From assembly GCA_051530055.1 (NCBI GenBank), contig CM121341.1:9898784-9962783 (forward strand): a stretch of DNA of 64,000 bases. The letters run 5' to 3'. The DNA comes from Neoechinorhynchus agilis (taxonomy: Eukaryota > Animalia > Acanthocephala). Below are positions 2,382 through 64,000 of the stretch, piece by piece. Position numbers and translations under genes: made by a program. Below the pieces are notes generated by a model. It made no database searches and was not told the origin of the DNA. It saw only the letters and a program-made list of their open reading frames with translations. Every line of letters begins with the position of its first letter. The first letter of the stretch is position 1.

Positions 2382-2547
2382 CTGCGGACGAAAATGGGAG
2401 TTGCTCCTATCTCTCCACGTACTCCACTGCGCGGATCCATATTATACGGAGCTTACACCAGGAATAAATTATAGTCATTATAGGTTTACAATAAACGGAG
2501 GAAGGGGAGCTCTCGAAACAAAGAATCATTGTGGTCAAATGAAATGG

Positions 2548-2638
2548 GGAAAAATAATATATCAAAGACTGACTTTAAAAAGTCCAGTGTAATTGGACGA
2601 AATAGTTCAAAGTCAGTCTTTGATATAGAATTTTTTCC
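2548..2638 (+). other. ~29-bp hairpin whose loop holds a core-decayed hammerhead relic (second copy 11955-12045)
   Basis: Arms 2548-2576 and 2609-2638 share a perfect 19-bp core TATATCAAAGACTGACTTT. The loop contains AG-TCCA-GTGTAAT-TGGA-C-GAAA-TAGT, matching the stem II/GAAA of the 62949-62987 motif, but CTGAAGA is missing. Confidence 0.6.
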
Positions 2639-2689
2639 ATGGAATTTATCGGTTTCAAGGCATCATTGCATAATAGTTTACAAACTATC

Positions 2690-11869: not shown

Positions 11870-12084
11870 AATAAATTATAGTCATTATAGGTTTACAATA
11901 AACGGAGGGAGGGGAGCTCTCGAAACAAAGAATCATTGTGGTCAAATGAAATGGGGAAAAATAATATATCAAAGACTGACTTTAAAAAGTAAAGTGTAAT
12001 TGGACGAAATAGTTCAAGGTCAGTCTTTGATATAGAATTTTTTCCATGGATATGATCGGTTTCAAGGCACCATTTGTCATGTTT

Positions 12085-15613: not shown

Positions 15614-16270
15614 TTATTGAGAATAACTCGAATAAACCCGATCAATGATCTTCCATACATCCTCAATTGACCAACGATTTGCAAAATACTCTTTCAAAAT
15701 CGGAACCGATTCTACCGTTCTCTTATTTCTAGAGACAAATTCACTTTTGGCTTCTTTGCGTAAATAGGAATGAATTGTTCGAAAATAGTAGTAGACATAA
15801 AGATCTGCGCAAGTCAATTGGTCAGTGATTATGTAACCACCTTTCCCATAGAGCTGCTCTAATTTTTCAAGTAGAGCGATTGATTTCGGTATTTCCTCGT
15901 CGTAAAACGTTTGCTGCCTTGCTGGGCTTTCATTAGGTGGGACTTGAAAAGCTTGTATAAGTTTTGAGAAATATTCATCAACGATCAAAAGGACTGCATC
16001 GCAACGTGCAGCGTCAATTCGCGTTTTTCCATTCAAGTTATACTTTTTACTGAGGAATCGAATTATCGAGCTTGTTTCACACAGGACTTCATCGTCTACC
16101 TTGAGAACTGGAACTTTGTTTAATGGCATAACGGGTTTATATTTCAAAGGCCAATCTTCAGTTTCAAATCTAAGGTCCGTGAACGGTATACCAATTGCAT
16201 GAAGCATTAGTCGTATAACTTCAGCTCGTCCTTCGAGATCAAAGTAATAAAGGGTGTATTCAGGGAACAT
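15614..16270 (-). CDS. Glutathione S-transferase, sigma-class-like, intronless and intact
   Basis: YTLYYFDLEGRAEVIRLML, MPLNKVPVLKVDD..LCETSSIIRFL, and C-terminal LTCADLYVY (N-capping box). Confidence 0.92.
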   Translation of the reverse strand: MFPEYTLYYFDLEGRAEVIRLMLHAIGIPFTDLRFETEDWPLKYKPVMPLNKVPVLKVDDEVLCETSSIIRFLSKKYNLNGKTRIDAARCDAVLLIVDEYFSKLIQAFQVPPNESPARQQTFYDEEIPKSIALLEKLEQLYGKGGYIITDQLTCADLYVYYYFRTIHSYLRKEAKSEFVSRNKRTVESVPILKEYFANRWSIEDVWKIIDRVYSSYSQ

Positions 16271-16835
16271 CGCGCTTGATGCTAGGTATTCTTTTTCGAC
16301 TAAGAACGAACTTCTGAGGTTTTGCTAAGACTCAAAAGTTTTTCATTGCTCATTGAAGTGAGACTGAGGTGAGCAAAGAGTCGCATTGTCATGATCGAAA
16401 ACTAGATCCTCACTTTATTTGTCGTTGTTGTAGTCCGGGCTAATTTTATTTTCAATTCCCAATAGCGATTCCATCGATTAATTTACAAAATTGGAAACAA
16501 AAATTTAGAGAGATTTAATTGCTCAAAATACAATTGGTAGGGGAATATATCACTAAAGTCTGCACTCGAGATTTTTTGACAGCATTGCAATAATATGCTT
16601 CTTTGTTGTTTAGAAGAAGATTTCAATTATGTTTTAAAGTAACTCACACGCCTAACCTATTGCAAAATATGTTTACGAAAATATCCATAAAATCGATTTT
16701 CACTTGCTTTCAAAAGCACGCTCGTTAGGGCACAATAACCAGTAATTTATTTACCAAATTTCACTAGAACTCTGATATGGCCAATCCGATTCAGCACGCT
16801 TAGTGTGTTAAAAAAACGTACAACAATAAAGCGAA

Positions 16836-22700: not shown

Positions 22701-23520
22701 GGATTATTTTCACCAAATTTTAAATTGTCTTCAATATAAACTACGTCATTGAATTTGAACCAGCGTTAATAGTTAGGAAAGAAACGTCATGTTAATTATT
22801 GTGTATCGTACAGTTCACAGCCGGTTTTTATTAGGAAATATTCCATGGCTGACGAGTCTCCGCACCAGAAGGGTTTTCCTTCGCAAATGGGCGATTCAGG
22901 CGCAAAGCAGGATGAAGTTGAGCCTTACATTAAGTTGAAGGTAATCAGTCAAGAGATCGGGGAGGTATACTTTAAAGTGAAATCGAATACTGTTTTGGGT
23001 AAACTCATGAAGTCTTATGCTGAGCGGGTTGGTTTGCCCGTTGGGACTCTACGTTTTATGTATGACGGTAAAAGGATCAACGAGGGTGAAACAGCAAGGC
23101 ATTTGGGTATGGACGACGAGGATTGTATTGATGTGTATCAAGAACAAGTTGGTGGGCACGTTGATTGAGTTACTACTCATGTTCGAGAATAAAATATTTT
23201 ATCTGTTCGACTGTTCAATGAACTCACGGCTGATTTTTGGCTCAAGGCCAAGAAAGCTCTCTAAAGGGAAAAATATTTAATAGAAACCATTCTCCGTTCA
23301 ATTTTTGCCCCGTCTGTTTCAAACGAGACTGATCAATAATGATCTCGCTTCGCATTATTCAATAAAAAGTGGCTTTTGTTATCTCTGTAATTCAATGGTA
23401 TTCGTCGATATTCTCAAGTTTGCTTGCTTTTCTGGCTAAAACATTGCGGAACAACTCGGCGATCGGAGAACGACTTATAATGATCTTAATTATTCTTTTT
23501 TTGTCGCCATCGGCAAAAGC
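19794..23520 (+). repeat. Segmental duplication (with internal deletions) of ~58981-61050, carrying SUMO
   Basis: GTTTTGTAAAAGTGCACTTAACCTAGG at 19794 and 58981; identity resumes around SUMO and ends at CGGCAAAAGC (23520/61050). Confidence 0.9.
22845..23168 (+). CDS. SUMO: SUMO precursor, intronless
   Basis: YIKLKVISQ..EVYFKVK...KLMKSYAER.G....LRFMYDGKRI...T...LGMDDEDCIDVYQEQVGG + HVD extension. Confidence 0.95.
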   Translation: MADESPHQKGFPSQMGDSGAKQDEVEPYIKLKVISQEIGEVYFKVKSNTVLGKLMKSYAERVGLPVGTLRFMYDGKRINEGETARHLGMDDEDCIDVYQEQVGGHVD

Positions 23521-24835
23521 AGCCAGGAAGTTGTTGTGCCATCCGATGTATGCGGCGATTGCTGTAGTAATTCTTCGACCCTTGATGAGTGTGATCTTGA
23601 GATCTCGTCCTTTTTGAGAGCATTTATGTTGAACCTACTTTTTCTAGGGTTCGAATGCCTTGGTCGCTTTGCTTTAAGGAGAGGAATAAACCGGGCGATG
23701 ATCGGTCCAACAATGGTCAGCTCCGCGCAGAAGCCTCGTGACAAGGAAATCTGATCGATGATTTTGTCGGATTATGGTGTATTGATGAGATGCCAGTCCA
23801 AGTCGTCTTGTTACGGTTCTTTAGTCGAAAGAGAGTATTGGTGATCACAAGCTCGAACTCAGTGCACATGCCTAGAAGTAGTTGTCCGTTGTGGTTGACA
23901 TTTCCAACACTTTCCTTTCGGGTTATGTTTTTCCAGAGCTTATGATCTCGACCAACGCGAGTATTAAAATCTCCAAGGATTATCAGTTTATCTGTTCGCG
24001 GAACGGCAGATATAACCGATCTAAGTATCTCATTGAAGGTGGCTTTATGGTTATCGGATGAGGTGGTTGTAGTTTTGGAGAGGGATGCGGATGGATGTTA
24101 TCCTTTCATTTATATGAGTTGGCTGTAGATTGTACCTTGAAACAAGCGAGGTTTTGACCGCCAGACCAACGCCATGAATTTGGGGTTCTGATGCGGCCTT
24201 TGCTTTCCAAAAGTAAGTGTATCCGCTTCCAATTTCGGAGAGCTGTCATCTTGTCGTCCTGCTTCGCTTAGTGCCGCTGCATCAATATTGTATCTCGCTA
24301 ACTCCTTCGCAATAAGTGCTCAGATCTTTCGTTTACGACCACAATGGGGGCGAAGTCCGCCAGGTGCACTTTCCTAGTCGAATAGTTGTTGGCATCAACT
24401 TTTTTAGCCCACCTTTTCTAGGACCTTCTCCAGTTTGGAGAGAGCAGTGCTACGGCCACAAAAACCCTGCTCGACGTATCCGCAGCTGCCGAGGTTTGAT
24501 GTTCCGCTGATGTGGAAGTTCCTGACTAGAGGCTTCCAGAGATTCACCTTTTCCTACCTCCGTCACCAGTAGCTCCTCGCCACCAGACTTTAGAAGGGAG
24601 TAGTTCCCAAATGAATGAAGTCTTTAGCGTGAATGCTTAGAGTGGAGTTGGGGCGCCACCTCATCTTCCATTTCCTTGGCACAGAAGGAAAGGAGTGTTG
24701 CAGAACAGTCCTTTGTCAGGAATCTCATCGAAGATTTGCCCGACATGGGTAACCCTTCCAGCCGCAAGTGTTCCAGACGGCTTAACTCTCCCGATCATTA
24801 GAACACGCAAGCGCTGCCACCACGTCAAGGTGTCG
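23521..24835 (-). mobile_element. RTE-clade LINE 5' part: 5' leader and AP endonuclease
   Basis: Minus strand (with frameshifts) IAKELARYNIDAAALSE...SGYTYFW...HGVGLAVK and TRGFC..WTDHR. The leader starts CCTTGACGTGGTGGCAGCGCTTGCGTG, resembling RTE 5' UTRs as recalled. Confidence 0.8.
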
Positions 24836-24849
24836 GTTCAGAGCAGGGT

Positions 24850-25310
24850 CTAGAATGTAAGGCTCAATTATTTCACGTATTTATTCCCACAGAACAAGGA
24901 AACAATTTAATCGCCTATTAGATAATATTTATTAGAATGATGGATGAAGAATATTGCCACTCAGGAAATAACAGGTATAAATTTGGAAAACTGGGAAGCT
25001 ACCATGAACAACTTACTGCTGAAATTGTTTCAAGCGTAATACCACGGATTGAAATTTCCGTCTTTTAATTTATATATCTCGCCTGAATTAGAAAATATTG
25101 AATTCGAGTTAGGTTTTGAAGTTAAATCAATTGTTAGGTTTCTAAAATCTTCAAATTTAACTGAAACTGAAGTCGTGGCTTTTGCAGGATGTTTTCGTCA
25201 TTAGGGTCATCAATTACTCTGGAGATTTAAAGAACTTCTGTGGGTATGTAACTGAGAAGAAAGATATTGATCAAAATGTTATAGAAAAATTAGTTAGTGA
25301 TATGACATTT
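24850..25310 (+). other. Endogenous rhabdo/mononega-like virus L-protein fragment 1
   Basis: Across frameshifts: DEEYCHSGNNRYKFGKL/WEATMNNLL...FPSF...AGCFRH*GHQ (25193-25213) and YVTEKKDIDQNVIEKLVSD (25245-25301). Matches the vesiculovirus L pattern GN.SY...K..E.I.N, FRHWGHP and VT.KKDID...LASD. Confidence 0.8.
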
Positions 25311-25705
25311 AAGCTCATTGAAAAACGGAACATTTAATTGTGTTTGAATTAAGTGGCTGAATGCCGGAAACTACAAGTTGGCAGTTGTCTTAGCATTAAC
25401 TTCCAAACCAGCTTATCGGAATATAACAAATATGCTTCCTTGGAAACTGGTTTTATACAAAATTCACGGACAATCAAGATAATGTTATGGTATAAATTGA
25501 CAAAAAAGTTGTTCAAAAAATTACAAAGAGAAGAATTGGATTTGACATTGCTCTTGCTCCTGTTCGCTGCCGCATCACCAAGTGGAGCGGCACGCCGACC
25601 CCGCGTTGACAGGCTACTATCAGTAGCTGTCTGGCCGCCGGAGCTGCTTCTTTTACGTGGCCGACAAGAATCAGTAACATCAAGTCCGATCATCGTGGCA
25701 GCATT

Positions 25706-26767
25706 TTGAGACGCCGAATTCAGCCAATCCTCGAACCGTTTCTAAGAATTGAACAGAACGGCTTCAGGAAAGGTCGAGGCACCACAGAGCACATATTGGC
25801 TTTGAGGAGGATCCTCGAAGAGGCACGAATTCTTCAAACGGACGTGACGCTGGTATTTGTTGATTTCCGTCGTGCTTTCCATTCGGTAAATCGAACGATG
25901 ATTGGCGGTATCTTAAAGGAGTATGGAGTGCCGCCGATCATTGTCACATCCGTTATGGCATTATATAAAAACACAAGGTCCGCCGTAAAGATAGCTGGCG
26001 GTTTGACAGAATACTTTTCCACCACTTCAGGTGTTCTGCAGGGCGACACATTGGCTCCTTTCCTCTTCATCTTGGTGCTTGATTGGGTAATGAGATGGAC
26101 ACTACCGAATGATGAAGATGGATTTCTTCTTGGTCTGACCATCAACTCGAAAAAGACGGAATTCTTGACGATTCCGCATGTCGCGCATACAGTCTCTGGC
26201 GAAGGGCCGAATGGCGTTGAGCAATTAAAACAGATAGAGCGGTATGTCTATCTGGGAGCTGTCGTTCCTGAGGTGAGTGCGGATGTCAGCCGACGGAGAG
26301 CTATAGCTTGGAGAGCAATGGGGCAACTTAAACCACTGTTTGACAGTGAGTCTTTGCCAGATGAACTCCGTTCGCAGCTGTTCAGGAGTCTAATTGAGAG
26401 CATTCTCTACTTCAATGCAGAGACCTGGACACTGTCACTAACGGCGACGAGGCAGTTCGACCAAAATCATTCATCTCTCTTACGCACGACGTTCAAGGTC
26501 AGATGGTCAGATAAAGTGACCAACAAAGCACTGTATAAGAGAGCCGGAGCCCAACCGCCCCGTGAATATTTGCGCCGCAGACGACTGCAGTTCACGGGCA
26601 ATATAATTCGGTCCGAGGCATCTTGCCCACAGGTCGTGCAACAGTTCCTTTTCTGGAAGCCATCGACATTGTATCGTAAAGGCAAAGAGAACTGTCGTAC
26701 ATACGACGTAGGAAAGTACCGTTGCAAGTCAGTACTCACAAGGGATTTCGACAACTGCGTTCGATAA
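25706..26767 (+). mobile_element. Non-LTR (RTE-like) RT with deletion of motif C
   Basis: EQNGFRKGRGT, FVDFRRAFHSV, GVLQGDTLAPFLF, then a direct jump to GLTINSKKTE and YVYLG; no YADD. Confidence 0.88.
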
Positions 26768-31900: not shown

Positions 31901-31997
31901 TCGACATAAGAAGTTTAATGTCATATATCATTGTCCTCGGGGTGAATTTGATTGTGCGTTGGCGAATCCTTTCCCCGGTGTTTTCGTTACTCATTTA

Positions 31998-32047
31998 TTT
32001 TAGAAATATTTCGCAAGGTTTTCCTTGCCTCTTCAGTCTATCTAAAA
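31998..32047 (-). ncRNA. Minimal hammerhead ribozyme in the inverted pseudo-LTR
   Basis: Reverse complement: ttttagataga-CTGAAGA-g-GCAAGG aaaa CCTTGC-GAAA-ta-T-T-tctaaaa (perfect 6-bp stem II). Confidence 0.8.
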
Positions 32048-33898
32048 TGGAGGGCATAGACAGCATGCACAGCCGGTCACGTCTGGATGTAGCTCAGATC
32101 TGCGGGTTTGCTAATACCCGAATTGTGGGGAGTTCCATCCGCACACACCTCTTGCGGTTTGTTGCCGACTAATTTGCCCGTCATGCTACGCAACTTTGGT
32201 AGCACCAGCGTGTGCCTGGACTCTGGCAAGTTCGTCAAACTCAGTTCCAATCCAACAGTAAAACGGGAGACACAACTAAATGCATTCTTGAGGACTCTAC
32301 GGAAAAATAACTCGATTACTGAGCACTTTCATCAACATACGAGGTCTTCTACAGCCAGGGCTTCCTTCTTGTATCTTTCCCCAAAAATACACAAACCAAC
32401 GATACAATACCGACCAATAATAGCCAGCTACAATGCCTTCAATCATCGTTTGGCCCGTAGAATCAATGCACTAATAAGAAGCGTAATGCCGAACACTCCG
32501 TCATACATAGCTGACGGCCCTTCCTTTGGAACCCGAATGCGACTGGAAAAGTATGCACAGTGCAAATTCTTCACGGCCGACGTAAAGTCCTTATTTACCA
32601 ACATTCCACTCCAAGAGACAATTTCCATAGCAGCTGAACTTCTACAAAATCAATGCGAAGAACCGCGCCTTGATCATAAAACGTAGATAGCTCTACTGCA
32701 GTGGTGCACATGCAAGACCGTTTTTGAATTCGATCAAGTTTTCTATGAACAACGCGACGGAGTTGCAATGGGTTCACCTCTGGTACCCACTCTAACAGGT
32801 CTCTACATGAGAAGATGGGAAAACAACTTCTTGAAAATGCAATCCAACATCAAAATCTGGTATCGCTATGTTGACGACGTGTTCATAGTCACTGATGATG
32901 AAACAAGCATGGGAGACCTAAGCATTCCACTCAACATGAAGGATTCAAACATCCAGTGGTCAATGACTCAGGAAGACGACGAGGGTGCTATCTCCTTTTT
33001 GGACGTAAGGATAAAACACGATGATAAAGGCAATATCAAAACACAGCTCTATCGCAAACCAGGTATAGCATGGGGTCCACCTCACTGGTCGAGCCACCAA
33101 CCGTTCCACTATAAAATAACAGCGGCAACGTCCTACTACTTCAAGAGGGCCAGGATGATTTCTTCAGAAAGCAGGGATTGGGAAGAAGAAAAACAAAATA
33201 TCACCAAAGTTCTCAGATAACGAGGCTTCCCTGAATATGCCATCAAAATCAGTCTGAAAAAGGCAAAACAGCGGCCACCGCAAGAAGAAGGAAACCGCGA
33301 GCATCTCCCTCGAATACACTGACTTTTACCACATAAGAGGGAACGCGACCGAAAAACTGAGGCGCCTCAACTACCTCGCTCCAAATCTTTTGATCTACAA
33401 CAAACGGGGCGCATCCATTGCGGGCATTCTCAAGAGGAAAACCAAGCAAGAGACCAAATTAGGGATATACAAAATCCCATGTGCAGAATGCCCAAAGGTC
33501 TACATTGGACAAACCATGCAAGGGATCATTAAACGGATTTCGCAGCATAAACAAGCTTGCAGGACATTCGACAAATCCTCAGCAATCTCGAACCACCAGC
33601 AAACAATCCAGCACAAGGTGGATTTTGAAAAGGCGAGATTCATAACCAGCGAACCGGATCTTAGAAGAAGACTGATTCTTGAGGCCATTCACATCCGGGG
33701 AAATCCGACGATAGAAGGCGATAAATCAAACCACACACTGGTGCTACCAAAGTTGCGTAGCATGACGGGCAAATTAGTCGGCAACAAACCGCAAGAGGTG
33801 TGTGCGGATCGAACGCCCCACACTTCGGGTATTAGCAAACCCGCGGATCTGAGCTACATCCAGACGTGACCGGCTGTGCATGCTGTCTATGTCCTCCA

Positions 33899-33947
33899 TT
33901 TTAGATAGACTGAAGAGGCAGGGAAACCTTGCGAAATATTTCTAAAA
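33899..33947 (+). ncRNA. Minimal hammerhead ribozyme in the 3' pseudo-LTR
   Basis: taga-CTGAAGA(33910-33916)-g-gcaggg aaa ccttgc-GAAA-ta-T-T-tcta; stem II has a G-U pair. Confidence 0.78.
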
Positions 33948-35691
33948 TAAATGAGTAACGAAAACACCGGGAAAGGATTCGCCAACGCACAATAAGAAGT
34001 TCAGATGGAAATTCCGTGCTGACGAACTTTTTAAAGCCTGGAGATCTAACCCCTCCAGAGCGAACAACAATTTTGGTGTTTCTCCTTCCATTTTCAGCAG
34101 TGTAGAGGAGGGTAATAAACTCCTCTTTTTCAACCACTTCAATGATAAAATTGAAGTGAAGGATCTGCTGAAAATTAATATACTTAAAAAGACTTTTATC
34201 CGCAAAAATAAAGTTAAAAAATCACTACTGCCTCTCACATACGCATTATATCTATTCAAAATCCGCTAATCTCAGTTTTTGAAAGAATCTTTAATGGTAA
34301 ATTATTGAATCACCTAATCAAGAAGAATGTTATTCCTAGTTATTTTCATGGTTTTATTCCGGCCAGAGGTGTTCATACCCTTCTTGAAAATCTCAATCAA
34401 CTAAACATTGACTTCATATATGTTAATAAATTTCTTCTTCAACTGGACCTGCCTAAGGCTTTCGATTGTGTTGATAGAAATTTTTTATATGAAGCCTTGA
34501 ATTTGTTTGAGCTTTCCTCTAATCTTATCTTCAAAATTAACCATATTATCGAAACCAAATCTTTTTACTATGATATAGACCCTGATCGTACAAAATATAT
34601 TCTTGCTGTGTTGAAATTCAATCTTGTTGTCATGACAACGCTTAGTTTAGGCTATATGTGTTTTCAAAGTTTAACAATGCACACGGTGTTCCACAGGGCT
34701 CACCTCTCCCCCACCCTTTTCCTCTGTATACTCATGTATATTTTTAAATCCAAACTGCCTAAGAGCAAGAGCATATTTCCTTTAATACATGCTGATGATA
34801 TTTTCCTCTTTTGCATACATAAGAGCCGCAGTTTTTTAATCTCCCACGTCTTATCATTCTTGACTCAGCTCCAATTCCACTTCAAAGCAGCTGACTTATC
34901 TATCAACCCCAGGAAAAATGTATTGACCCCTTTAAGCAAATCTTCTCATGCGAGATCGCTTCTAAAGAAAGATCTCAGATCTAATTTTACTTTCTCCCAA
35001 TTCGTTTTGTCGAGTAACGATAGAATTTTAGGCATCGACTTCCCTTCGTCTAAAAATCGAACATATGCTAATTCTTCTTTAATGGCTTTTTCTTTTCCAT
35101 TAGGCGTATTTTAAAAAGATCCTTGAAACTTGATCTATGTCACTCCTTCATCCCAAATATTATTTTACTTTCATACATAGGCGGAGCCATCTGTTTTTTT
35201 GCTCGAGGCCGTCCTACCGAACTAAGATTTTTCTTTTTTAATAAATTTATCGACAAATTTAAAAAATTACTCCGCCATTTTCCGTTTACAGAATATTTTT
35301 AACTAAGGCATGTTATTACTCCTCTTCCTTTCCCTTAACCAAGCTTTTATTTTTTAACAATCCGGTGCATTTCAGCTTTCAGAGGGTTTCAATATTCTAC
35401 TATAAAGTACTTTATCAATTCTATGTCTTATAAAGACAAAAAGAGCTGTTTGTATTAACTACGAGGCTAGTTTTCTTGTTTTTTGAAGGTAAGTAGGGGT
35501 ATTGAGGAGCTAAGAGTTCGCTCATTACTCAGCCCCCACTCGCTTCTTCGTTTTCTTTACCTTTAGATTTTACATTGATTATTAGAATCAACTCAATCTA
35601 AAGAAAACAACTCATAAACTTTTTTTGCTTTTTAATTTTTTTGCGGAAAATATATATTTTAAACAATTCAAACAATGTGTTTGAAGCACAC

Positions 35692-36229: not shown

Positions 36230-36940
36230 TTGCAAAAGAATGACCCCATAAAGCACACAAAAGTTCATTTACGAGTCGATGCAGATACACAGTGTGTCCG
36301 ATTTCCGACGAGACGAATTCCGTTCGCACTAAACAAACCGTTAAAAGAAGAACTTGACCGTTTGGTCCAGCGTAGAATTATAGAGCCTGTAGAGAAGGAG
36401 GACAATGATGTCAGCTGAATCACGCCGATAGTCATTGTTCGGAAAAAAGACGGATCCGTGAGAATATGCGGGGATTTCAGGATCACGATTGATCCCCATT
36501 TAATTACCGACTCATATCAGATGCCGACTACGGATGAGCTTCTCAGCAAACTGACGGGAGGAAAAAAATACTCCGTTCTGGATTTGTCAGATGCATACCT
36601 GCAAGTTGAGCTCGATAAGGAAAGTAGCAAACTTTGCGTATTCTGCACACCATTTGGGCTATTCAGATACAGGCGTTTACCTTTTGGACTAACAAATGCC
36701 CCTCAGTTATTCCAGCAGATAGTGGATGAAATGTTGAGAGACGTTCCGAATGTTGGAGTGTATTTGGACGACATAATAATCACCGGAGGGGATGATAAGG
36801 AGCATATTTCGATTCTTCGAAGGGTATTAAGTATTCTGGAAGAGAAGGGTTTTAATTTAACGGAAGAGAAGTGCAAGTTCATGCAAACAAAAGTTACGTA
36901 TTTGGGGCATACGTTGGAGAATGGTTGGATAAGGCGTCCA
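36230..36940 (+). mobile_element. Ty3/Gypsy reverse transcriptase fragment
   Basis: RICGDFR, DLSDAYLQ, PFGLTNAPQLFQ, YLDDIII and YLGH; nonsense codon at ~36418. Confidence 0.92.
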
Positions 36941-37390
36941 ACTGATTATCGAGATGACTAAAAACTGGGCAGTCGTTCGAGGTGCCAACTTGACTTCTAC
37001 TGTTGGCGATCCTATCACAATGCCCTGGTGGCGGCGAGCTTACTACCGAGTGTTAGTCAGCGTACGTAATAGGCAACAATTAAAGCGCTTTGCGGTTATG
37101 GGGCATTTGTTATGGGCTCATTTAGTTGGGCATTATGGTGATTCCTATTTGCCCTACTTGTGGACTGAGTCAACTGTGGCGAGCTACACGGTGCATTGCC
37201 CTGTCAAGGACGCCACTTCTGTCAAGCTGCGTAAACAGGGTTGTCCCTTTCCGGGCAGGCGGGCGAATTGTGTTCCCTACGTTGATGATCAACTCGAGCA
37301 AGGTTCCCGACTGGGGGTTGTAGAGCCAAATAGCCAGTATACAGACCAGGGTAACCAATCTCACGCCACGCGTCCACCCAGCGCTGCTAA
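36938..37390 (+). other. Noda-like virus protein A fragment, piece 3 (region approaching the RdRp)
   Basis: Overlaps piece 2 by ~105 bp (7 substitutions, 1 gap). Continues NLTSTVGDPITMPWWRR...; in a shifted frame SQIASIQTRV resembles the nodavirus SI..RV motif upstream of the RdRp core. Confidence 0.55.
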
Positions 37391-38525
37391 GCCCGAAACT
37401 TGCCCACGACAATGCCCTCAGCCTCCCAGCTGTGGTACTCATGAGCGTAGACGTCGCCGCCTCTCGTGGTCATCGTGACGAACTCATTTTGGACTCGTCC
37501 TGTTACCTCTCCATCAAACAAACTGAACTCTGCAGCGGGACGGTAACGCGCAAACTCATGGGTTATAATGACAAAGGGTGAGTTACAAGCGTCAGTAAAA
37601 TTCAACAAGTGGAATGTAAAAGTCCCACATAAGACAGCACAGCCATCTTATTTGGATCAGTGCACTCCTGGAGTCTATGATAACACAGTGATGGTGAGTC
37701 AACAGACAACAGCGTGGCTTTATCAATGACAGTGATGTTCAGGTAGCAGATGTGGTCGGTTTGCAGGGTGTCCCTCTTCGCAGACCCTCCTACATCACGA
37801 TAGGCTTTGTTGGCCAGCCTCTTCATAACGGAATCAGCAAACTCTTCCAGCTGGGCTCTGACGTAAGCCATGGTCAGGTGCCCTGTCAAGTCATTGCTTT
37901 GAACGAGTGGATGATCCTTGGTGAACTGCTTGAACAGTGCTTTGATCGTTCCAACTTCAATAGGCAATACAGGAGCATCTTGCTTAATACCATATCCAAT
38001 ACACCGGCAACACCACAACATGACAGCCCTTGACACGAACAAAGTGACATACATCGCTGTGCCCAATACGACGAAACAGATAGCGGCCCAGACAACTGGG
38101 ACAATCAACTTAATCAAATCAATGGCAGTCCAGAACGATAGATAATTCAACACTTGGTGACGAGGTACCTCGAACCCCAGGGCAGCATACAAGCTGCAAA
38201 TTAGTGGGATTTTTCGGGTCAATTCACATTGTCGAATGATCGAATCTGCAGAATGGCGAGACAATCGACGTAACAAAACGTCGGATACCTGTTTCTCGAG
38301 CACGCGTCGCAAACACACGAGGTGCCAGGGCTCCTTTCCCGAAAGTAAGCTGCTGGCAACGCTTACACTATCAATGACAGGTATAACCATCGTGCCGAGG
38401 GAGTAAACTAATCTGGTCCAAAAGCGCTCGAACAAGCCAATAGCAGCTGGGATACCACAAACCATTAGGAACAGTGGTAGCACAGTCGTGAAGGGCGAGA
38501 AAATCAGTCGAATCAGGAAAATCAT
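37390..38525 (-). other. Noda-like virus protein A N-terminus: hydrophobic anchor and capping methyltransferase, piece 1
   Basis: GHLTMAYVR (37883), RDVGGSAKRD (37799), CYHRLQEC, (Y)VDFYI after a frameshift, and PFVIITHEF..DGE..V..TTRGGDVYAHEYHSW. This parallels Flock House virus H..A.R / VDYY / HTF..VSGGA.WVH.VWDW. Confidence 0.8.
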
Positions 38526-38934
38526 GATCAGAGGAATCGGTGTGCAAGGATGAAAGATCGCAACCGCAGGTCGCTGTTAATATTCTGTCGACCGCGACCG
38601 ACTTAATGTACAAAAACATCGAGGTTTTAGGTCAGACGGTGGGCAATCTCAGGGATTTCTACCATGCGGAATCTAATCCCGTCCGCTTTTCTTCAACTTT
38701 TAATAAGTTCAAAATAAAGCGTCCACGATGCAATGACCTAAATGAACGTACATTCCTAAGCGAAAATTGGAATATCGACGTTTCCAATAATTTCGATCAA
38801 TATTACTTATATTGAGGTTGTAGTGAGCATTAACGACGTCATAAGGTCCATGTTAACGTTTTCCGTGTTATGTTGAATAAATAAGCCATTTTTGTGCAAC
38901 GACAGTAGATTTTTCGATCTACTGATGCCAGCCG

Positions 38935-39399
38935 TCGTTAATTACGCGCGACTTTGTTCCTGGGGTCAATCAATAGTAATTTTCATGTACCCAGTTAGGT
39001 GGTCTTATATCACTGGCGACCAAAAGAACTTGGCCAATACTGTTCCAAAACATGCATCTAGCTATGTCATTGGGTCTTACAGGCAGCACAATGTTCAGGC
39101 TGTGCATGAAGGTCAAGACTACGTCTTCAAATCGTTTGACAATCACACTGTCACGTTGGGCTCCATTCGCGCCACCACGGTCATGCAAGCAGCCTTTCAG
39201 GTTGCTTTTTTAGAGAGAATTGAGAATTGGGCTGGCGTGTGCCGCACTCTTATCAGCCACAATGATGACAAAATGGAGGTTATTGATATGGCGGCCCAAC
39301 TGATTATCGAGATGGCTAACGACTGGGCAGTCGTTCGAAGTGTTAACTTGACTTCTATTGTTGCGATCCTATCACAATGCCCTGGTGGCGGCGAGCTTA
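38935..39399 (+). other. Noda-like virus protein A fragment, piece 2 (post-methyltransferase region)
   Basis: Open frame QSIVIFMYPVRW...AAQLIIEMANDWAVVRSVNLTS; shares its 3' 104 bp with piece 3. Confidence 0.55.
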
Positions 39400-39429
39400 G
39401 AGTTGCTTCATTTATGAATTTTGATTCCA

Positions 39430-40050
39430 AGAATATTTTCTAATTGGCGGTGGGTTTAGGGTTGCTTTTCGATGTAGTGTTCGTCTCATTCTTCTCTCGC
39501 TGAAAACTCATCCTCGTCTTCATTAAGGACCTTTTAATTGCCCAATTCGGATATCCTTCCTCTCTGAGCATTGATGTTATTGAGTCAATTCCTTGCCTCC
39601 GTCATTTCTCCTCGGAGCATATTCTCATAGCTCTCCTGAATAAGGCATCCGATGCTGCTATCTTGTATCTCACAGGGTGGTCAAGTCCAGTTTTGGTTCG
39701 CCACAGTTTTTCTTGAGTATTTTATCCGTCAACTCAATGGCCTCTTGAAGAGGAATGTTAGTGAATAAAGATTTAATATCGGCCGTTATAAACCATGATA
39801 TGTTTGATGGAAGATTCCGCACTTCTGCGAAATTCATCAATAAAGCAACGCTGAACAAATTACAACCTCCTATAAGAAGATGCGAGACCCACTCGGTGTC
39901 AATATATTCAAAAGCAGCAACGAAGTTGGCGGGTATATTCAAAAAGAAACCAAAACAAGAGGATAAAAGTATAATCTAAAAAGTACCATGCAGACAATGC
40001 GGAAAATATTATGTTGGACAAACAATTCAAGGACTAAAAAAGCGCCCCCC
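39430..40050. mobile_element. Penelope-like fragments in opposite orientations
   Basis: Minus 39790-39480: ADIKSLFTNIPLQE and HPVRYKIAA..LFRRAMRIC. Plus 39820-40050: II*KVPCRQCGKYYVGQT (GIY-YIG). Confidence 0.8.
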
Positions 40051-40869
40051 CTTTTCCTTTGAAAATCGGGATCATAATACTTCACCTCGATTCGTCTGGA
40101 ATCCGCTCAATATCGAAGATACGTCGTACAAATTTAGTCAATAAATGAATAGCATCATCTCTAAATTTTTCGATCTACTGATGCCAGCTACCACAACAAT
40201 TGGTGACCCCGACGCTGTCGACCGTGGTTCGACAGTAGAAGCGAATAGCAACTTGTATACCTTCCGTTTACAAGCGTAAACATTATTATTGTGATTTGAG
40301 TTTTGAAAACTATTTACAATCTACCGCCGTCATTATCATGAAATAAAAAGACATCAGGTGTACCAATACCATTATTCGCTTTATGGAGATCGCTACCACG
40401 CCCAAAAGGAAAAGTTTATTTGTGTGTGGCGCTAAAACCAAAGGGATGCCCTAATACTTCAATGCAACAAACTGATTTCACCAATTACACAAAAAATGCA
40501 CTACATTTTTAAAAGAAAGTTGGAATGTGGAAGTCTTCAATAATTTCAAACGAAGTTTCCATTATTCGCTCCCAAATCGCTCGACTCATCTTAGAACAAC
40601 AAAGAACGATGGGAGGAACACAAATGCAACAATAGAAAGCGGACAGCGATTTGGAAATTACGAAAAAATAGAAGAATTCAAGCTCTATGTGATGATTCGG
40701 CGCCCGTTTAAAAAAATTATCGTCATTTTTATTGAAAAAATTAATTTCTGAGAAGTTGCCATTTAGTCTTCTTGCTCCAAGTGTTTTTAATTTAACGTCG
40801 ATTTTATCCGTTTTCTAAGGTGTTACAGGTTTTCTAGAATGGAAACTAACAATCGATTTTAAGTGGATA

Positions 40870-41065
40870 TCCTATCAAGTCCAGAGTTCCGATCTAATGA
40901 TGAATGTCCCACTACAAAACGAAAAAAGATGTTAAATCTATTCTTGCGCTGAAGAAACGTGGAAGGATTGATCCTGAAATATACCAAAAACATCGTTCCA
41001 GTAACGGAATGACATCGATTATGTAGTTATTGGCCAAAGTTCATAAGTCCCCATTAAAGATCAAC
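40870..41065 (+). mobile_element. Penelope-like RT N-terminal fragment
   Basis: LKKRGRIDPEIYQK...LLAKVHKSPLK, comparable to PKIHK/AKIHK in the other PLE copies. Confidence 0.55.
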
Positions 41066-41358
41066 GCTACAAATTTCATCACTTTTGTGTGCTGTTCTCT
41101 TCTTGGCATAAGGGTAAAAGAAAATATTTTACGGTTGATATTATCGTTGTGATTGCCACACTAAATAAAAGGGTGTATTATATATTTAAAAAATAATTCC
41201 CCTTATCTTATATAGATTCTCGTTTGAACTGGAAATGGCGATTTTTTGCTAAGATTTATTCCCAGGAATCTTTCCTTTAATTTTCAAGTTTCATTTGTCG
41301 TGGCTTCTTCGCGGGACCAATCAGAGGCACAATAAAAAATTAAATCAGTGAATAGTTT

Positions 41359-43789: not shown

Positions 43790-44980
43790 CTTGTCGGAAG
43801 AAGTTGAGCCAACAATCTTCACAAGCTTCAGAGAGGTGGCGCTGAGGACACCAGACTGGCAGTGCGGGGAGTTGCCGGAGGCACTCCGACGTATGATCCC
43901 GTCTGCGTGGTTGCTCAGTGAGGATAACGGGAGCTTCCGATTGGGACTCTCATTGGTTTATAATTATGAGCAAGGAGGCAGGGTTTGGAATCGGGATATT
44001 GAGGTGCGGTTTTCCACAGTGAGAGAAGGCGTGCAATGTAGGTATCTGAGTTCGGGAAGGAGTACGAACGAATATCCCCCCTGACACTGTTGGAGATGTG
44101 CTCAGGACTGACTGATATAGTGAGAGACGGGGCCTGGCTACAAGCACTCAAGAACACAAGTCAGTTTGTGGGAGGAGTAAGAGCACAGGATTATCAGCCC
44201 GGGCACGCCAAGGCGATAAAGACACTCATGAGCAGGAAAGTGCAGCCGGAGAGGTTCGTGATGCGCATGGCTGCGGTGTATTGCGCACAAGCATTGAGAG
44301 AGGCAGGAGCACAAACTAAACGCCGCCTGGGCGGGGCACGGACATTGCGGTGGTTGAACGTCAACAACAGTCAGGCTCATGGCGATTTATTGATACAAGC
44401 AGTGATGGGGAGAAGTGACATCGTGTACGTACCGTCCGAAGTGGGCGACCCCCGTACAGTGCTGGCGGCGGTATGCCTTGCCGCTTCGCCAGAGTTCCCA
44501 TTCCGGGACATGCTTCTTGGGCGGACAGCCTGGCCCAACATAAACAATCCATTGATAGCATATAGCAGGCTGCTAGATACAGAGTATGATTTGGAGGAAT
44601 TGAACCTGCCGGCAACAGAGTTGTGGAACATCTATTCTCGAATCTGCCATCATTACGGAAGGACAAATCTCTGGTGGAACATGGTGCGAGGAGTAATGTT
44701 TGATGCGCTCCGAGTGGAAAATCTCGCTTTCCAGGGCCCACTGCTGGAACAGTACACGCCAATGGAGCAGTGACCAGCCCCCTACATAGATGAAATGGTG
44801 CGCGAGGCGATGATGCGGCACATCCTCCTATCCAGTTGCTATGGAGAAGCAACACAATGGGCATGGGAGGCCGAGTGGCTAACTCGATGCTCTTGAGAGA
44901 TTTAACAACATGGACGGGTGCTTGACAGCCCGCGTCGCGGATCTGCTGGCGCGGACAGGATGGAAGCGAAACTTATCCGC
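43790..44980 (+). other. GC-rich, long, coding-like insert; probable toti-like (dsRNA virus) capsid fragment
   Basis: ~400 codons in one orientation with a frameshift at ~44080 and a stop at 44773. No retroelement or host motif; composition foreign to the AT-rich host. ERFVMR, DIVYVP..AAVCLAA and WPNI segments resemble toti-like capsids as recalled. Confidence 0.45.
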
Positions 44981-48599: not shown

Positions 48600-48790
48600 T
48601 TGGAAAGTCTTTCCCAATATATGTTGATGACACTTCCATATACCTGCTCTGCTGCCGAGGAATCAAGGTCGCCTTTGGGCGCGGTGCGAATTCCTAACAA
48701 AATCCAAAGAAATTCGTCGATCCAATTGTTTCCGCAGAGGCGAGCTTTCAAAGCCGATTTCAGATTGATCGGTTGAGCAGAGATCCATGG
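48600..48790 (-). mobile_element. Ty3/Gypsy integrase C-terminal core fragment
   Basis: LKSALKARL..W..LLGIRTAPKGDLDSSAAEQVYG. Confidence 0.75.
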
Positions 48791-48799
48791 GACCACCAT

Positions 48800-49530
48800 A
48801 TATGGAACCCCATGCTTCCTCTAACCGACGTCATGAAACCATTGCCCGTAACGCGTGTTACTTGTACGCCCAAAATAAGATAAATTGTTATTTTCCTCCT
48901 CTTCCATTGTCCATTTTGGTGGCAGTTATTCAGCTCTTTGACAAGTTGTATCCGTGAACTCCTATTGGGATCTAGGATAATGAACGTATCATCCACATAT
49001 CTTAGCCAGAGTGGAGACAATGGACTTCCCATCGCCAGCCCATCCACCTGGTCAAAATTTTCATTTTCAAACACAAAGTTTGAATATTGTGTACAAAATC
49101 GAAGTAGCTGTGGCCAATTAACAGCTGAGATCTTCCATTCTGAACAGTTTTTAACCAACAAGTTTATGGCTAGCTCAATTACCTCTTTCACCGGTATCTT
49201 AGTAAATAAGGACGTAACATCTGCAGAAACCATGAGACCAGATTCGTTTGCATTCATCTTATTCAATCGATCAATGAAATCTACTCCCGATTCAACCACA
49301 TGATTTGATGGGGGTAGAAGCTGTTTAAGAAAACTCGCTAATTTCCTCGATGACTTATAATTATAGGAAGAGTTTGCAGCGATGATCGGTCGTGCTTTGA
49401 TGGATATTTTGTGGATCTTTGCCAATAAATACATTTTCGGCGTCTTTGCATTCACAGATCGTATTCTTTTATACTAATTACACGTCAGTTTAAAAATTTT
49501 GCCTTATTAACTGTCATTAAAAAAAACCAA
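48800..49530 (-). mobile_element. Penelope-like RT fragment with a deletion between motifs B and C
   Basis: LAKIHK..RPII, SADVTSLFTKIP, GLAMGSPLSP joined directly to LWLRYVDD. Confidence 0.88.
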
Positions 49531-58877: not shown

Positions 58878-60373
58878 ACCGACACTAAAACCGTCCAATC
58901 AATCGAAGGCGTAATCGTGCGCTTTACTTCGCAACTCCCTTGTCACACAATCTCTACGAGGTGGTCAACTGTCATCCAACGTTTTGTAAAAGTGCACTTA
59001 ACCTAGGAGCAGAAATTTCTCTCTCGCTCCTGAGCTCGGATACAAACTATCATCTCCTGGAAAAGGATGTTTAATTCGAATAACCTCGTGCCTAGCCGAC
59101 ATTTTCAAACGTAAATCAGAAAGCATATTTCGCCTATCCCACTGAAAAATGGCCACCGGTTATACCTAAACAATCATTACAAAAATGACGGTCTAAAAAA
59201 GAATCAATCATTTCATCTCTGGAACAATGAGGTTCTACCTAACAACAAAAAAGGCCCTCACTCATTCACGACTTACTAAATTCCAAACCCACCACGAGAT
59301 CTTCACAGTCTTCACAGAGTTCATTTTCCTAAATGTTGCCACTGTGCCGATGATAACCACGTCTCGGAAAAGTGCCCGAATTCTAAAAATATTCGTTACA
59401 GGACCAAATCTTGAATTTGTTTAGCCGCGACAACGCACCTTTCCCCCCGCACCTCGATACTTGCATTTTCTAGTCCATCGAAGATATTTCTCAAGAATAG
59501 CATTCCTATGTGTTGCTCAGCTGGTAGTCTTTTTATAGATATGTTTATTTTTTCCATACTGGGCCCAATAATATGTCCTATATAGAAGACGGAAAAAATT
59601 GACTGAATCTCCTACTGCTTGGAAAAACCAATTAGGTTACCACTAAATAGAATAATGCAATTGATTATTTATTTTTGTCATTAATTGCCACAGATGGAAA
59701 ACTGTAACAAAAATAAAAATGTTAACTTAATTCGGTGTTACCGTGGATGCTAGCGGTCGACCTAAAGATTCCGGAGGCTCGAATAATTCGAGTGCACAAT
59801 AGTCCAGACGATGAGATGGGCTAGGCGATGGAAACTGATTTATAAGGATTTTTAAAAACGATTCGAAGGCTCCGTGGGAGCATGCTAGAAAATGAACAAA
59901 AACAATCATTTTCGAAGTTAAATCGCTTTTAGGAATTGCAGTTATCTGCTGATTGTCGATAATCTGCAATTCTGGAAATTGTTCAGTGATCACAAAAACA
60001 TCTCTAGGACGTTTATTAAGAAAACAAGTCTCATAAATAGAGAAATGCGAATAACTCAGGAAATATTGCAGCTATCCAAAATCTGAAAACATGTTTGGAA
60101 TAAGCTCGTCAAAAGTCATAAGCGTGTTAGATCATGAAAATTGCAATAAACAACCAATTTGATGTCTCCGTGAATCGTGCAAACGATTTTCGAAGAAATA
60201 TCGCTTTCTTATCAACGCTTAGATAATTACTTCGTCCAGCGATTCTTTTTAAATTGTCTTCAATATAAACTACGTCATTGAATTTGAACCAGCGTTAATA
60301 GTTAGGAAAGAAACGTCATGTTAATTATTGTGTATCGTACAGTTCACAGCCGGTTTTTATTAGGAAATATTCC

Positions 60374-60697
60374 ATGGCTGACGAGTCTCCGCACCAGAAG
60401 GGTTTTCCTTCGCAAATGGGCGATTCAGGCGCAAAGCAGGATGAAGTTGAGCCTTACATTAAGTTGAAGGTAATCAGTCAAGAGATCGGGGAGGTATACT
60501 TTAAAGTGAAATCGAATACTGTTTTGGGTAAACTCATGAAGTCTTATGCTGAGCGGGTTGGTTTGCCCGTTGGGACTCTACGTTTTATGTATGACGGTAA
60601 AAGGATCAACGAGGGTGAAACAGCAAGGCATTTGGGTATGGACGACGAGGATTGTATTGAAGTGTATCAAGAACAAGTTGGTGGGCACGTTGATTGA
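60374..60697 (+). CDS. SUMO: SUMO precursor, second intact copy
   Basis: Identical to 22845..23168 except CIDVY changed to CIEVY. Confidence 0.95.
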   Translation: MADESPHQKGFPSQMGDSGAKQDEVEPYIKLKVISQEIGEVYFKVKSNTVLGKLMKSYAERVGLPVGTLRFMYDGKRINEGETARHLGMDDEDCIEVYQEQVGGHVD

Positions 60698-61055
60698 GTT
60701 ACTACTCATGTTCGAGAATAAAATATTTTATCTGTTCGACTGTTCAATGAACTCACGGCTGATTTTTGGCTCAAGGCCAAGAAAGCTCTCTAAAGGGAAA
60801 AATATTTAATAGAAACCATTCTACGTTCAATTTTTGCCCCGTCTGTTTCAAACGAGACTGATCAATAATGATCTCGCTTCGCATTATGCAATAAAAAGTG
60901 GCTTTTGTTATCTCTGTTATTCAATGGTATTCGTCGATATTCTCAAGTTTGCTTGCTTTTCTGGCTAAAACATTGCGGAACAACTTGGCGATCGGAGAAC
61001 GACTTATAATGATCTTAATTATTCTTTTTTTTGTCGCCATCGGCAAAAGCAAACA

Positions 61056-61596
61056 ATATCGACGAATACCATTGAATTACAGAGATAACAAAAGCCACTT
61101 TTTATTGCATAATGCGAAGCGAGATCATTATTGATCAGTCTCGTTTGAAACAGACGGGGCAAAAATTGAACGTAGAATGGTTTCTATTAAAGATTTTTCC
61201 CTTTAGAGAGCTTTCTTGGCCTTGAGCCAAAAATCAGCCGTGAGTTCATTGAACAGTCGAACAGATAAAACATTTTATTCTCGAACATGAGTAGTAATTC
61301 AATCAACGTGTCCACCAACTTGTTCTTGATACACTTCAATACAATCCTCGTCGTCCATACCCAAATGCCTTGCTGTTTCACCCTCGTTGATCCTTTTACC
61401 GCCATACATAAAACGTAGAGTTCCAACGGGGAAACCAACCCGCTCAGCATATGACTTCATGAGTGTACGCAGAGCAATATTTGATTTCACTTTAAAGTAT
61501 AATTCCCTGCTCTGTGGGACTCAACTTCATCCTGCATTGCGCCTGAATCGCCCATTGGCGAAGAAAAGCCCTTCTGGTGTGGAGACTCATCAGCCA
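61056..61596 (-). pseudogene. SUMO: Inverted SUMO pseudogene with 3' flank, forming a fold-back with 60375-60940
   Basis: Reverse complement of the upstream SUMO gene and flank. ATG changed to TTG, a ~20-25 bp deletion in the YIKLKV region, several substitutions; 115-bp spacer. Confidence 0.9.
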
Positions 61597-61989
61597 AGAT
61601 TGATAAACGATATCATTTCTAGAATGTTACGGGAAATATGTTTCGAAGTTTCATTTGGCGGAACTTTTCCAGCATTTCGATGGAAATACCCCAAATGGCT
61701 TATACTTTCCTCATAGCTTAATTGCGTTTTTGAATAAATTTAGGTACCCTTTGTTCAATATGGCAAGACTAAATGCATTCACATTGTTTTTAATCTGTGC
61801 AAATCAAGAATCCCGTTGATTGTGCTTTTTAAGAAGCATTTTTAATTTTTTGGGACACATGTCTGAACAGCAAGGAGCTTGATTCTAATTTCTACCAAAC
61901 GACCTCTTTCTTATTCTCCTTTGAGCAACGCAATCATCAAAATAGTACCAACGTCAATTTGATGCCTGAGTCCAATTCACGATTTCCCT

Positions 61990-62515
61990 GCAAGTGGTAT
62001 TGGTTATCGATAAAGCTTTTGTCCTACAAGGTGCCTTTTTGGAGCGAGGTTCCGGTGCTTATCAATCTTGATTATCTGTAAATGATTCAAAATGTTCTGA
62101 GGTCAATAGTGTATAGCCTTATCGGCTAATAGATACCAGGAAATGGAATCCGGAAAATGTTCAGTCATCTCATAGACAAAGTCTACTCCTTGGTCGATAA
62201 AGTTTATTGTCATGCAGGAAACAACGGGTACTAATCCGGAAAACTGTGGGAGGCAATCATGAATAGTTTCTTGTTTGACTTGTCTAGAAACTCATATAAA
62301 GAATTGGATTTTCCATCATTTTGGTTGTTGAATCTGGGTTTAAAAGTTTGGATGATGACTTGAGTATTCAAGTAACTTCGTTTGTTGATTATCTAAACAA
62401 TTGGACCTCATCACGACTTAAGTAGTTGCTCCTGCGTGTTGTTTCCAGCATTGGGCATCCGACTATTGATTATCAAGAAGGGCTAAAAGCAATCCATTAG
62501 TACGTGACAGAACCA
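61990..62515 (+). other. Endogenous rhabdo/mononega-like virus L-protein fragment 2
   Basis: VYSLVDKVYCHAGNNGY*SGKLWEAIMNSFLFDLSRNSYKELDFPSF (62181-62321) and FQHW/GHPTIDYQEGLKAIH*YVT (62443-62509). Compare vesiculovirus L GNFSYDLIKMVEPICNL..FPHF and FRHWGHPFIDY..GLEKLH.QVT. Confidence 0.85.
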
Positions 62516-63630
62516 ATATGGGCTCTGCTAAAACAATTTTCTCGTCTAATGCGCACGATTTGGAACCCGATTTTTGTTGGAGAACAATATGTGATAGTCG
62601 GAGGGCCACTTTTCTTACCATGTGCTCATGGGTGCTTTCGAGATGCAGACGGCCCAGACATTTTATGTGGTTACAGTGACATTGGAGGGCGGCTCCCAGG
62701 TGGTCGAGCGGTTTACGTTCGGCCGCGAGAACTGCATTGGTGGCTTTCCTTACGACGTCTTCGGATCATCAATTAAGGGGCTCTAGATGAAGGAAAAGAC
62801 TATGTTTTCTCTTCTTGTGTTAGTTTGTCCCTGTCTGAGAAAGGACTTATAGATTATGAAGAGGTGGAGTTTGGTGTTGACGTTAATAGTAGACTAAAAG
62901 GTTTTGACTCAAAAGCAGGTAAAATTATATCAAAGAATGAATTATGTTTGAAATATTTCATCCAATCGCACTGGACTTCTTCAGTCAGGTATTGCTTGTA
63001 AGTTTTAACAATCGTGAACAATATAAAGAGGCTGGTTTCAAGATATTAATGGCAAGTGAGTTTAAACGTCTTAGTGTTTGCCCTACTCTGAAACGGATCA
63101 TTTGAAGTGTTCTTCTATCTCATCACTCAGTGTGTGTGAATGGATGGTATGATGATGAGCATTGGGAGAGCCGAACACGGTTGACTTCATTGGTGTGAAA
63201 GAGTGGTGGCAGACACACTGGTGTATCGGTTAACAACGGGAATGCCTTCTGGTTCCAATTTGACGACCTTCTACAATTCATTGGCTTATGCAATTATATT
63301 GTCTCAAGCGGTGTTTGATAGCCTTCACAGTTTAAGGGGTATCAGGGTTGCGACGCCATGGAAAAACTAAAGCCTTTGGAATGGTTTGGTCACTATGGTA
63401 TGGTTTATACCGATGCAAACAAAGGTCAGGCATTGTCATTGTTGGAGTCCGGAGAAGTATCTTTTCTTAAGAGAAAGTTTCTTCAGCTATGAAGTACGCC
63501 AGTTATGCTAATGAGTTTGGATGATGTTGCAGTCCCTCAAATGATACAGAAAAACAAGCGAAACTCGGACATGGTCCACTAGAGCATTGACGGAAGGAGC
63601 AGCAATTGAAGTTGCTTTACATGGTCGGAT
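62516..63630 (+). other. Endogenous picorna-like virus RdRp fragment, heavily decayed
   Basis: EEVEFGVD..GFDSKAG (~62860-62918), VNGWYDDEH..R, motif B GMPSGSNLTTFYNS (63239-63280), GMVYTDANK, FLKRKF (63463-63480) and IEVALHG (63605-63625). The GDD motif is deleted. Confidence 0.88.
62949..62987 (-). ncRNA. Minimal hammerhead ribozyme motif inserted in the picorna-like fragment
   Basis: Reverse complement: tga-CTGAAGA-a-GTCCA gtgcgat TGGAT-GAAA-ta-T-T-tca. Flank 62915-62948 is homologous to 8900-8930. Confidence 0.6.
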
Positions 63631-64000
63631 GAGGAGTCAAAATTAAAAAATGTAAAATTCCTTAATTTTCTGCCGAAAATAGGAGAACATTTGCAAAGTC
63701 CGCTAAGTATGGAAGGAAGGAAACCTACTTCAAGGCAATTACAGAAACCTCAAATGGCAAAATTTAAAGGACAAAAGCGTCGAAATTATCGATGAATTAA
63801 AAGAATAAAGGAATCACACCACGATCAATAAATAACCACAAAAATTGGAATTCATTTTAAATGCGATCGTGATGAGAACCAGCAGTTGCAAAAGAACCAA
63901 AATATGAAATATTGCGGGAAAATATGATCTCCGACAAACAATTTCTCGGGATATTTACCCCATTTCTGGAATACTACGATTATAATCTTTTGCCATTTCA

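Follow-up and report, generated by a model that had tools for sequence, protein, structure and literature searches.

Decayed rhabdovirus-like L and Picornavirales-like RdRp fragments with a Penelope remnant at one locus of Neoechinorhynchus agilis

Near one end of a 64-kb stretch of Neoechinorhynchus agilis DNA (the window), we observed a decayed rhabdovirus-like L fragment, followed on the same strand by a decayed Picornavirales-like RdRp that carries a remnant of a Penelope element and lacks its motif F to A region and its GDD motif. The pieces lie in single-copy DNA in the order L-like fragment (62030-62512), a segment at 62513-62779, a first RdRp piece (62780-62920), the Penelope insert (~62921-63096) and the main part of the RdRp (63097-63628) (Table 1). 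On balance, we favor the view that two unrelated viral fragments came to lie end to end through separate integrations and that a Penelope element was inserted in the second afterwards.

The locus and its surroundings

The window is eukaryotic and dense in decayed LTR, LINE and Penelope fragments, together with further viral pieces. It contains an LTR-type reverse transcriptase (RT) with RNase H, several LINE-type RTs, at least three Penelope ORF remnants and duplicated SUMO-like genes. The latter include an intronless ORF present at both 60302-61596 and 22718-23521 (99% identity) and a third copy, inverted and 90% identical, which lies tail to tail at 61047-61596 and is predicted to be able to form a long hairpin RNA. 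Both L copies described below are located ~1-1.4 kb downstream of SUMO-like repeat copies. An intact-looking intronless glutathione S-transferase ORF (15617-16324, minus strand) was found among repeats. Fragments of a Chroparavirus-type methyltransferase (Pfam PF19223, E down to 1e-18) occupy both strands at 37390-39440 and adjoin an LTR-type RT (36419-36958); judging from their sequence, they are a rearranged positive-strand virus fossil. A G+C-rich ORF of 243 codons (44042-44900, plus strand) had no Pfam match, and we take it, by impression, to be a candidate toti-like capsid.

Of the sampled words of 61600-63800, 95-98% were present in each of five public runs. The raw genomic and Hi-C reads of S6, an independent sample with its own fixed and mixed differences from the window, covered the non-repeat parts of 61460-64000 at ~8-30x. 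Their depth was 9-15 over the virus-virus junction (62480-62564), with no joint, and no loose end among those listed, near 62512. Four contigs (X1, X2, X3, and X4) also cross this junction, and reads and contigs together represent three studies. One contig runs across 61460-63987 with a single difference from the window, while X2 and X4 match 62400-63250 exactly and are possibly the source of the window sequence. The virus-virus junction of the original prediction is thus supported by raw reads as well as by contigs. Insert repeats aside, the locus is single-copy chromosomal DNA, and no empty-site allele was seen in the reads and contigs over it. The viral frames at the locus are all broken, and nothing intact is encoded.

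Table 1. Features of the focal locus and related features elsewhere in the window.
Feature	Position	Strand	Basis
Decayed Mononegavirales (rhabdovirus-like) L fragment	62030-62512	+	Profile, blastx, second copy
Unassigned single-copy segment, possibly RdRp N-terminus of the same virus as the next piece	62513-62779	+	
Probable Picornavirales-like RdRp piece ending at motif G	62780-62920	+	Anchored nulls, register agreement
Penelope-type pLTR fragment with minimal hammerhead	62921-63006	-	Hammerhead core 62948-62987
Penelope RT N-terminal fragment	63005-63096	+	F-x-x-L-x-x-x-P-T-x-K-R block
Decayed Picornavirales-like RdRp	63097-63628	+	Post-motif-A helix, motifs B, D, E, C-terminal helix
Second L-like fragment, independently decayed	24850-25550	+	~65% identical to 62030-62512
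Near-complete Penelope element	31951-34265	+	Inverted pLTR, sense RT, GIY-YIG, pLTR
Further Penelope remnants	39560-40050, 40830-41070, 48763-49473		

The two viral fragments

A motif derived from the window retrieved 75 loci. An L-type ORF was present in 70, and 53 of these 70 proteins were used to build an L profile. Two spans, 62028-62297 and 62372-62512, scored 19.5 and 17.0 bits with this profile (null maximum of 3.4 bits in 438 tiles), the first being outside the motif used for fetching the relatives. The N-terminal L blocks and the HWxHPxIDY motif follow one another in order over 62028-62512, with 28-34% identity to L relatives. The fragment corresponds to about residues 220-375 of these relatives and stops short of the catalytic core. 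The best blastx E-value was 1.8e-6, the match to Pfam PF00946 was weak (E 0.12), and PDB provided nothing useful, with the L-protein chain 5chs only at E 0.28. Six stops and several frameshifts interrupt the fragment, and one frameshift splits its HWxHP motif.

The second L copy runs past YVTE in register with L relatives, whereas the focal copy drops to background at that point. Aligned as DNA, the two copies score 78 in the 200 nt that lead up to the anchor, whereas the score beyond it falls to -6.5 (null mean 2, sd 14). Since the second copy and the relatives continue past YVTE, we placed the break of the focal copy at ~62512, in agreement with the original prediction that the rhabdo-like frame stops at YVTEP (~62515). 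The two copies differ mostly at third codon positions (35/25/50 differences in 96 codons, p = 0.013) and have their stops at different places in the aligned blocks. These differences suggest two integrations of related viruses, each followed by decay. Directly after the second copy comes a LINE-type RT ORF (25610-26764).

Relatives of the RdRp were collected with the D-E block as query, which yielded 64 picorna-like loci. Profiles were made from thinned protein sets (25 of 63 RdRp proteins, then 40 of 59 and 35 of 51 in later tests, including the F-A profile), and the letters A to G given here to RdRp motifs are our own assignment. The stretch 63133-63628 matches the relatives in order, first in the post-motif-A helix and motif B, then in the D and E motifs and the C-terminal helix, and the spacing of motifs B, D, and E and the C-terminal helix is that of a Picornavirales RdRp. 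Profile scores over this stretch were 40.7 and 13.0 bits, the D-E block is 50-57% identical to Picornavirales-like relatives, and motif B matches Pfam RdRP_1 with an E-value of 5e-4, a match that falls below the curated cut-off. Upstream of the insert, 62780-62920 is probably a piece of a Picornavirales-like RdRp ending at motif G. None of 1,500 nulls was as good when anchored (18 of 400 unanchored), the anchor falls on the repeat edge that the reads define at 62921, and three of the top six relatives agreed on the same register (best p 0.005).

Motif B and FLKR are separated by 73 codons at the locus and by ~91-105 codons in relatives in which both motifs were located. Approximately 24 codons including GDD are absent near 63340-63370, confirming the predicted loss of GDD. 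Similarly, ~480 nt separate motif G from the WY-D helix in relatives and only 51 nt are left here outside the insert, so that ~430 nt, motifs F and A included, are missing. By spacing and profile, motifs F, A, and C (GDD) are all absent at the locus. We infer that they were lost later, which lowers the case for function, not for origin.

Neither virus can be assigned to a genus or family, since no close relative was present in the collections searched. IMG/VR scans with L or motif-B queries gave no relative. None of the 26 loci obtained with a motif-B pattern was closer than the earlier relatives, nor was any of those listed from a metagenome scan with at least eight loci. We take the IMG/VR loci L086-L160 to be Rhabdoviridae-like L and L001-L085 to be Picornavirales RdRp, with family labels of our own, based on genome size and motifs. 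For the helicase-protease-polymerase module and the capsid, 61600-62060, 62513-62925, and 63600-64000 had no match below E 0.01 among L001-L160.

The segment right after the junction (62513-62779, 267 nt) has the length of an RdRp N-terminus and is in frame with the motif-G piece, with one stop in the 136 codons of 62513-62920. Its likeness to RdRp relatives was at chance level, matched by 56 of 300 shuffles and 85 of 300 window tiles, with no register significant. Word-seeded protein searches gave no relative, and the ESM Atlas had no usable match for two frames. It had been predicted that picorna-like sequence follows at once on the rhabdo-like stop. The common strand stands, while "at once" was not borne out over these 267 nt, and picorna-like sequence directly after the L fragment is plausible. 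A more scrambled locus, in which the segment would be the motif F-A part of the same virus moved out of place, or would come from a third source, is a tentative alternative that we find less probable; it is compatible with all the main explanations discussed below. Indeed, 62681-62803 gives an ungapped 41-residue alignment (p 0.008) with the part of L001 that ends at motif A, and no other relative fits motifs D and E as well as L001. The G+C content at 62600-62799 (51-54%) is above that of the flanks. However, wrong frames reached p 0.004 in the same test, the F-A profile scored -2.9 bits (matched by 788 of 1,212 nulls), and both the reading frame and the length of the segment agree with an RdRp N-terminus. 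L161 was rejected as a relative of this segment, the match being an octapeptide shared by chance with a repeat protein of no relation. A separate G+C-rich insert at 62600-62775 was unsupported, its piece 62516-62605 being matched by 260 of 400 nulls.

The Penelope insert

The RdRp is interrupted by ~176 bp, made of an antisense minimal hammerhead piece and a sense piece of the N-terminus of a Penelope RT. The original prediction had placed a hammerhead-family piece of ~75 bp (62915-62987) exactly where motif F is lost. The hammerhead was retained, the extent of the insert was corrected to ~62921-63096, and motif A was found to be missing too. The hammerhead has CUGAAGA at 62984-62978, an unpaired A, a 7-bp helix II, GAAA, and a minimal palindromic helix III, that is, the CUGAnGA and GAAA core with a long helix II carrying an unpaired 5' base. 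Helix I has only 3 bp, compared with 7 bp in the copy at 8.9 kb and with the 4-5 bp expected of a Penelope minimal hammerhead. Its predicted fold was no better than shuffles (z -1.04), with a non-hammerhead minimum fold, and Rfam gave no match to 62948-62987.

Other hammerhead copies of the window are at 2.6, 8.9, and 12 kb, and depth over the family was ~50x single-copy at 90% likeness and ~110x at 80%. Many reads from other loci over 62940-63012 carried two closely spaced hammerheads in opposite orientation, so that inverted pairs are common in this family. In the copy at 2545-2650 (plus strand), the core is broken and lies within a long hairpin of very high stability (z -8.9); together with the copy at 11954-12045, this copy is part of a 1.6-kb duplication with Forkhead and FHA fragments.

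The other half of the insert (63005-63094) belongs to a second repeat family, at ~30x single-copy depth, whose copies are ~85-90% alike and elsewhere have flanks unlike the focal locus on both sides. With the window's own Penelope ORFs as references, the best match of 63005-63096 among 2,523 six-frame window tiles was the Penelope RT N-terminus at 40830-40922 (0 of 5,000 shuffles), and the element at 32231 was matched as well (17 of 5,000 shuffles). Pairwise BLASTP gave no alignment with the 32-kb ORF, and Smith-Waterman aligned the two. A reading of 63020-63090 as viral motif A was ruled out, as this is a 30-copy repeat matching Penelope. With Penelope RT sequence from a multi-copy family next to a hammerhead-bearing pLTR, the insert is, on its sequence, Penelope in nature. 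The insert has no RT core, GIY-YIG, downstream pLTR, or target-site duplication.

A near-complete element at 31951-34265, broken by a few stops, offers a comparison. It begins with an inverted hammerhead-bearing pLTR, continues with a sense RT from the same PT block and GIY-YIG, and ends with a hammerhead-bearing pLTR. The layout of the focal insert is that of its 5' end, where the inverted pLTR is followed directly by the sense ORF at the PT block. By analogy with this one element, the hammerhead piece and the ORF piece may come from a single Penelope family. Inverted 5'-truncated Penelope copies beside the ORF are described as usual in the accessible text of PMC8557442.

Formation of the locus and comparison with known systems

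In the scenario that we favor, host reverse transcriptases would have copied viral mRNA-sense RNA, because all viral pieces at the locus read on the plus strand. The two viruses would have integrated separately, the picorna-like cDNA inserting into or beside an older L copy and cutting it short at 62512, or else a deletion would have joined both. A Penelope element would later have inserted just after motif G as an inverted pLTR and a 5'-truncated ORF. One deletion would then have removed the rest of this element with ~430 nt of adjacent virus, and a separate small deletion the GDD region. A single insertion with a single deletion would account for the insert, for a loss on one side only, and for the intact order of the virus, the identified picorna-like pieces keeping their native order on both sides of the insert. 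Stops are found in 6 of 153 codons of the L piece and 3 of 304 in the rest (p = 0.066, in frames chosen by homology). The difference is not significant, but it weakly favors an L piece that is older or more decayed and, for the meeting of the two viruses, a nested integration or a deletion. The sequential acquisition proposed in the original prediction is hinted at by this difference, and neither an array structure nor a repeated junction was found at the locus. Between the Penelope ORF piece and its family, 9-13 letters differ in ~90. This is similar to the decay of the picorna-like sequence (roughly 8%, with a wide range), so that the piece does not stand out as younger than the virus. Against the scenario, neither a target-site duplication nor an empty-site allele was seen, no host DNA lies between the L piece and the next segment, and the mRNA sense is shared by the Penelope ORF piece and the two viruses, which is what template jumping would produce.

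A single chimeric cDNA, formed by an LTR or LINE RT jumping between two viral RNAs in a co-infected cell, with Penelope arriving later, would account for the shared strand, the mRNA sense, and the lack of a host spacer at 62512. Copy-choice capture by LTR elements was proposed for Aedes (10.1101/127498), and composite viral fragments formed before integration were reported there (PMC8048955), as far as the accessible parts of both sources go. We nevertheless find such a chimera unlikely: decay may have gone further in the L piece than in the rest, the ORFs examined near 61600-64000 yielded no LTR-element or LINE fragment, and the sequence right after the junction resembles RdRp relatives only at chance level.

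Still less probable, in our opinion, is that a Penelope RT stitched a negative-strand virus, a positive-strand virus, and its own RNA into one integrated cDNA. The original hint that Penelope machinery takes part did gain from the finding of an ORF piece, in the sense of both viruses, beside the hammerhead inside viral sequence, and the ages of the Penelope piece and the viruses are inseparable. A weak direct likeness over 48 nt between 62803-62850 and 63060-63101 (63 of 3,000 random pairs, post hoc) could be microhomology or chance. According to the accessible portion of PMC11167929, a Penelope RT in vitro initiates internally, at a site that shares no homology with the DNA that was cut, and pLTRs have carried foreign cargo in what could be consulted of PMC6431247. 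On the other hand, the insert is ~410 bp from the virus-virus junction, inside the picorna-like gene, with the layout of an ordinary insertion. By single-copy depth, no Penelope sequence lies at that junction or at the outer ends, and at least four jumps would be needed, one of which would have to lead onto an antisense pLTR and another to return, with the order preserved, to the same viral RNA. The suggested association of viral fragments with pLTR sequences held, within the 64-kb window, for the focal insert and not for the other three viral or virus-like fragments, which are 3.5, 6.5, and 10.1 kb from the nearest hammerhead (the 44-kb ORF being viral by impression only); three of the four thus lie >3 kb away. 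Other viral pieces in the window adjoin retroelements of other kinds and not hammerheads. At the hammerhead density of the window, the chance that a stretch of 1.6 kb contains one is ~14-16%. Finally, an assembly artefact or a contaminating viral sequence is highly improbable, since, although X2 and X4 may be the window's own source, the independent S6 genomic and Hi-C reads cover the locus as deeply as its flanks, 61460-62977 is also bridged by X3, which comes from a further study, and the stops and frameshifts in the viral frames exclude a live virus.

If a Penelope RT had made the chimera, a new enzyme class would be added to the ways by which RNA-virus sequences enter germ lines, and Penelope elements would join LTR elements and LINEs as a third route of RNA-virus endogenization, one by which unrelated viruses could be fused. 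We found no report of Penelope-mediated viral endogenization in the literature searched, which consisted of main texts mostly outside subscription journals; the accessible parts of PMC12219104 and PMC11286205 contained nothing relevant. Under the favored scenario of separate integrations, the locus most likely records past infection of the host by two divergent viruses, one rhabdovirus-like and the other Picornavirales-like. The former would have integrated at least twice in 64 kb, and the locus would mark a region that traps viral cDNA. Rather than a system for archiving viruses, it is probably a commonplace jumble within repeat-rich DNA, and a putative role of the locus as a source of small RNAs is possible.

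Composite viral fossils in repeat clusters are already known. In Aedes aegypti, non-retroviral fragments of several RNA-virus families occur in transposon-dense piRNA-cluster loci, according to the available text of 10.1101/127498 and PMC8048955. The locus resembles these in having RNA-virus fragments of more than one family among transposons, a same-strand bias, a prominent rhabdovirus L, and a composite structure. As far as these texts go, the Aedes composites are non-consecutive parts of one virus, whereas here two unrelated viruses appear to abut without a spacer. The partner in Aedes is mostly an LTR element, while the interrupting element here is Penelope, and the locus is known from DNA alone. 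Unlike its Rhabdoviridae-like L and Picornavirales RdRp relatives, the focal locus has only broken frames and no close relative. With regard to the insert, dispersed hammerheads are derivatives of Penelope elements in the accessible parts of PMC4209133 and 10.64898/2026.07.22.740005. The focal hammerhead shares the core, the 7-bp helix II with an unpaired 5' base, and the minimal palindromic helix III with the minimal hammerheads of Penelope described in the former. At ~176 bp, with a 3-bp helix I and without the RT core, GIY-YIG, downstream pLTR, or target-site duplication, the insert is unlike full Penelope-like elements. It is like them, as described in the consulted parts of PMC4209133 and PMC8557442, in belonging to families with many dispersed single copies and in having an inverted 5'-truncated copy beside a sense ORF.
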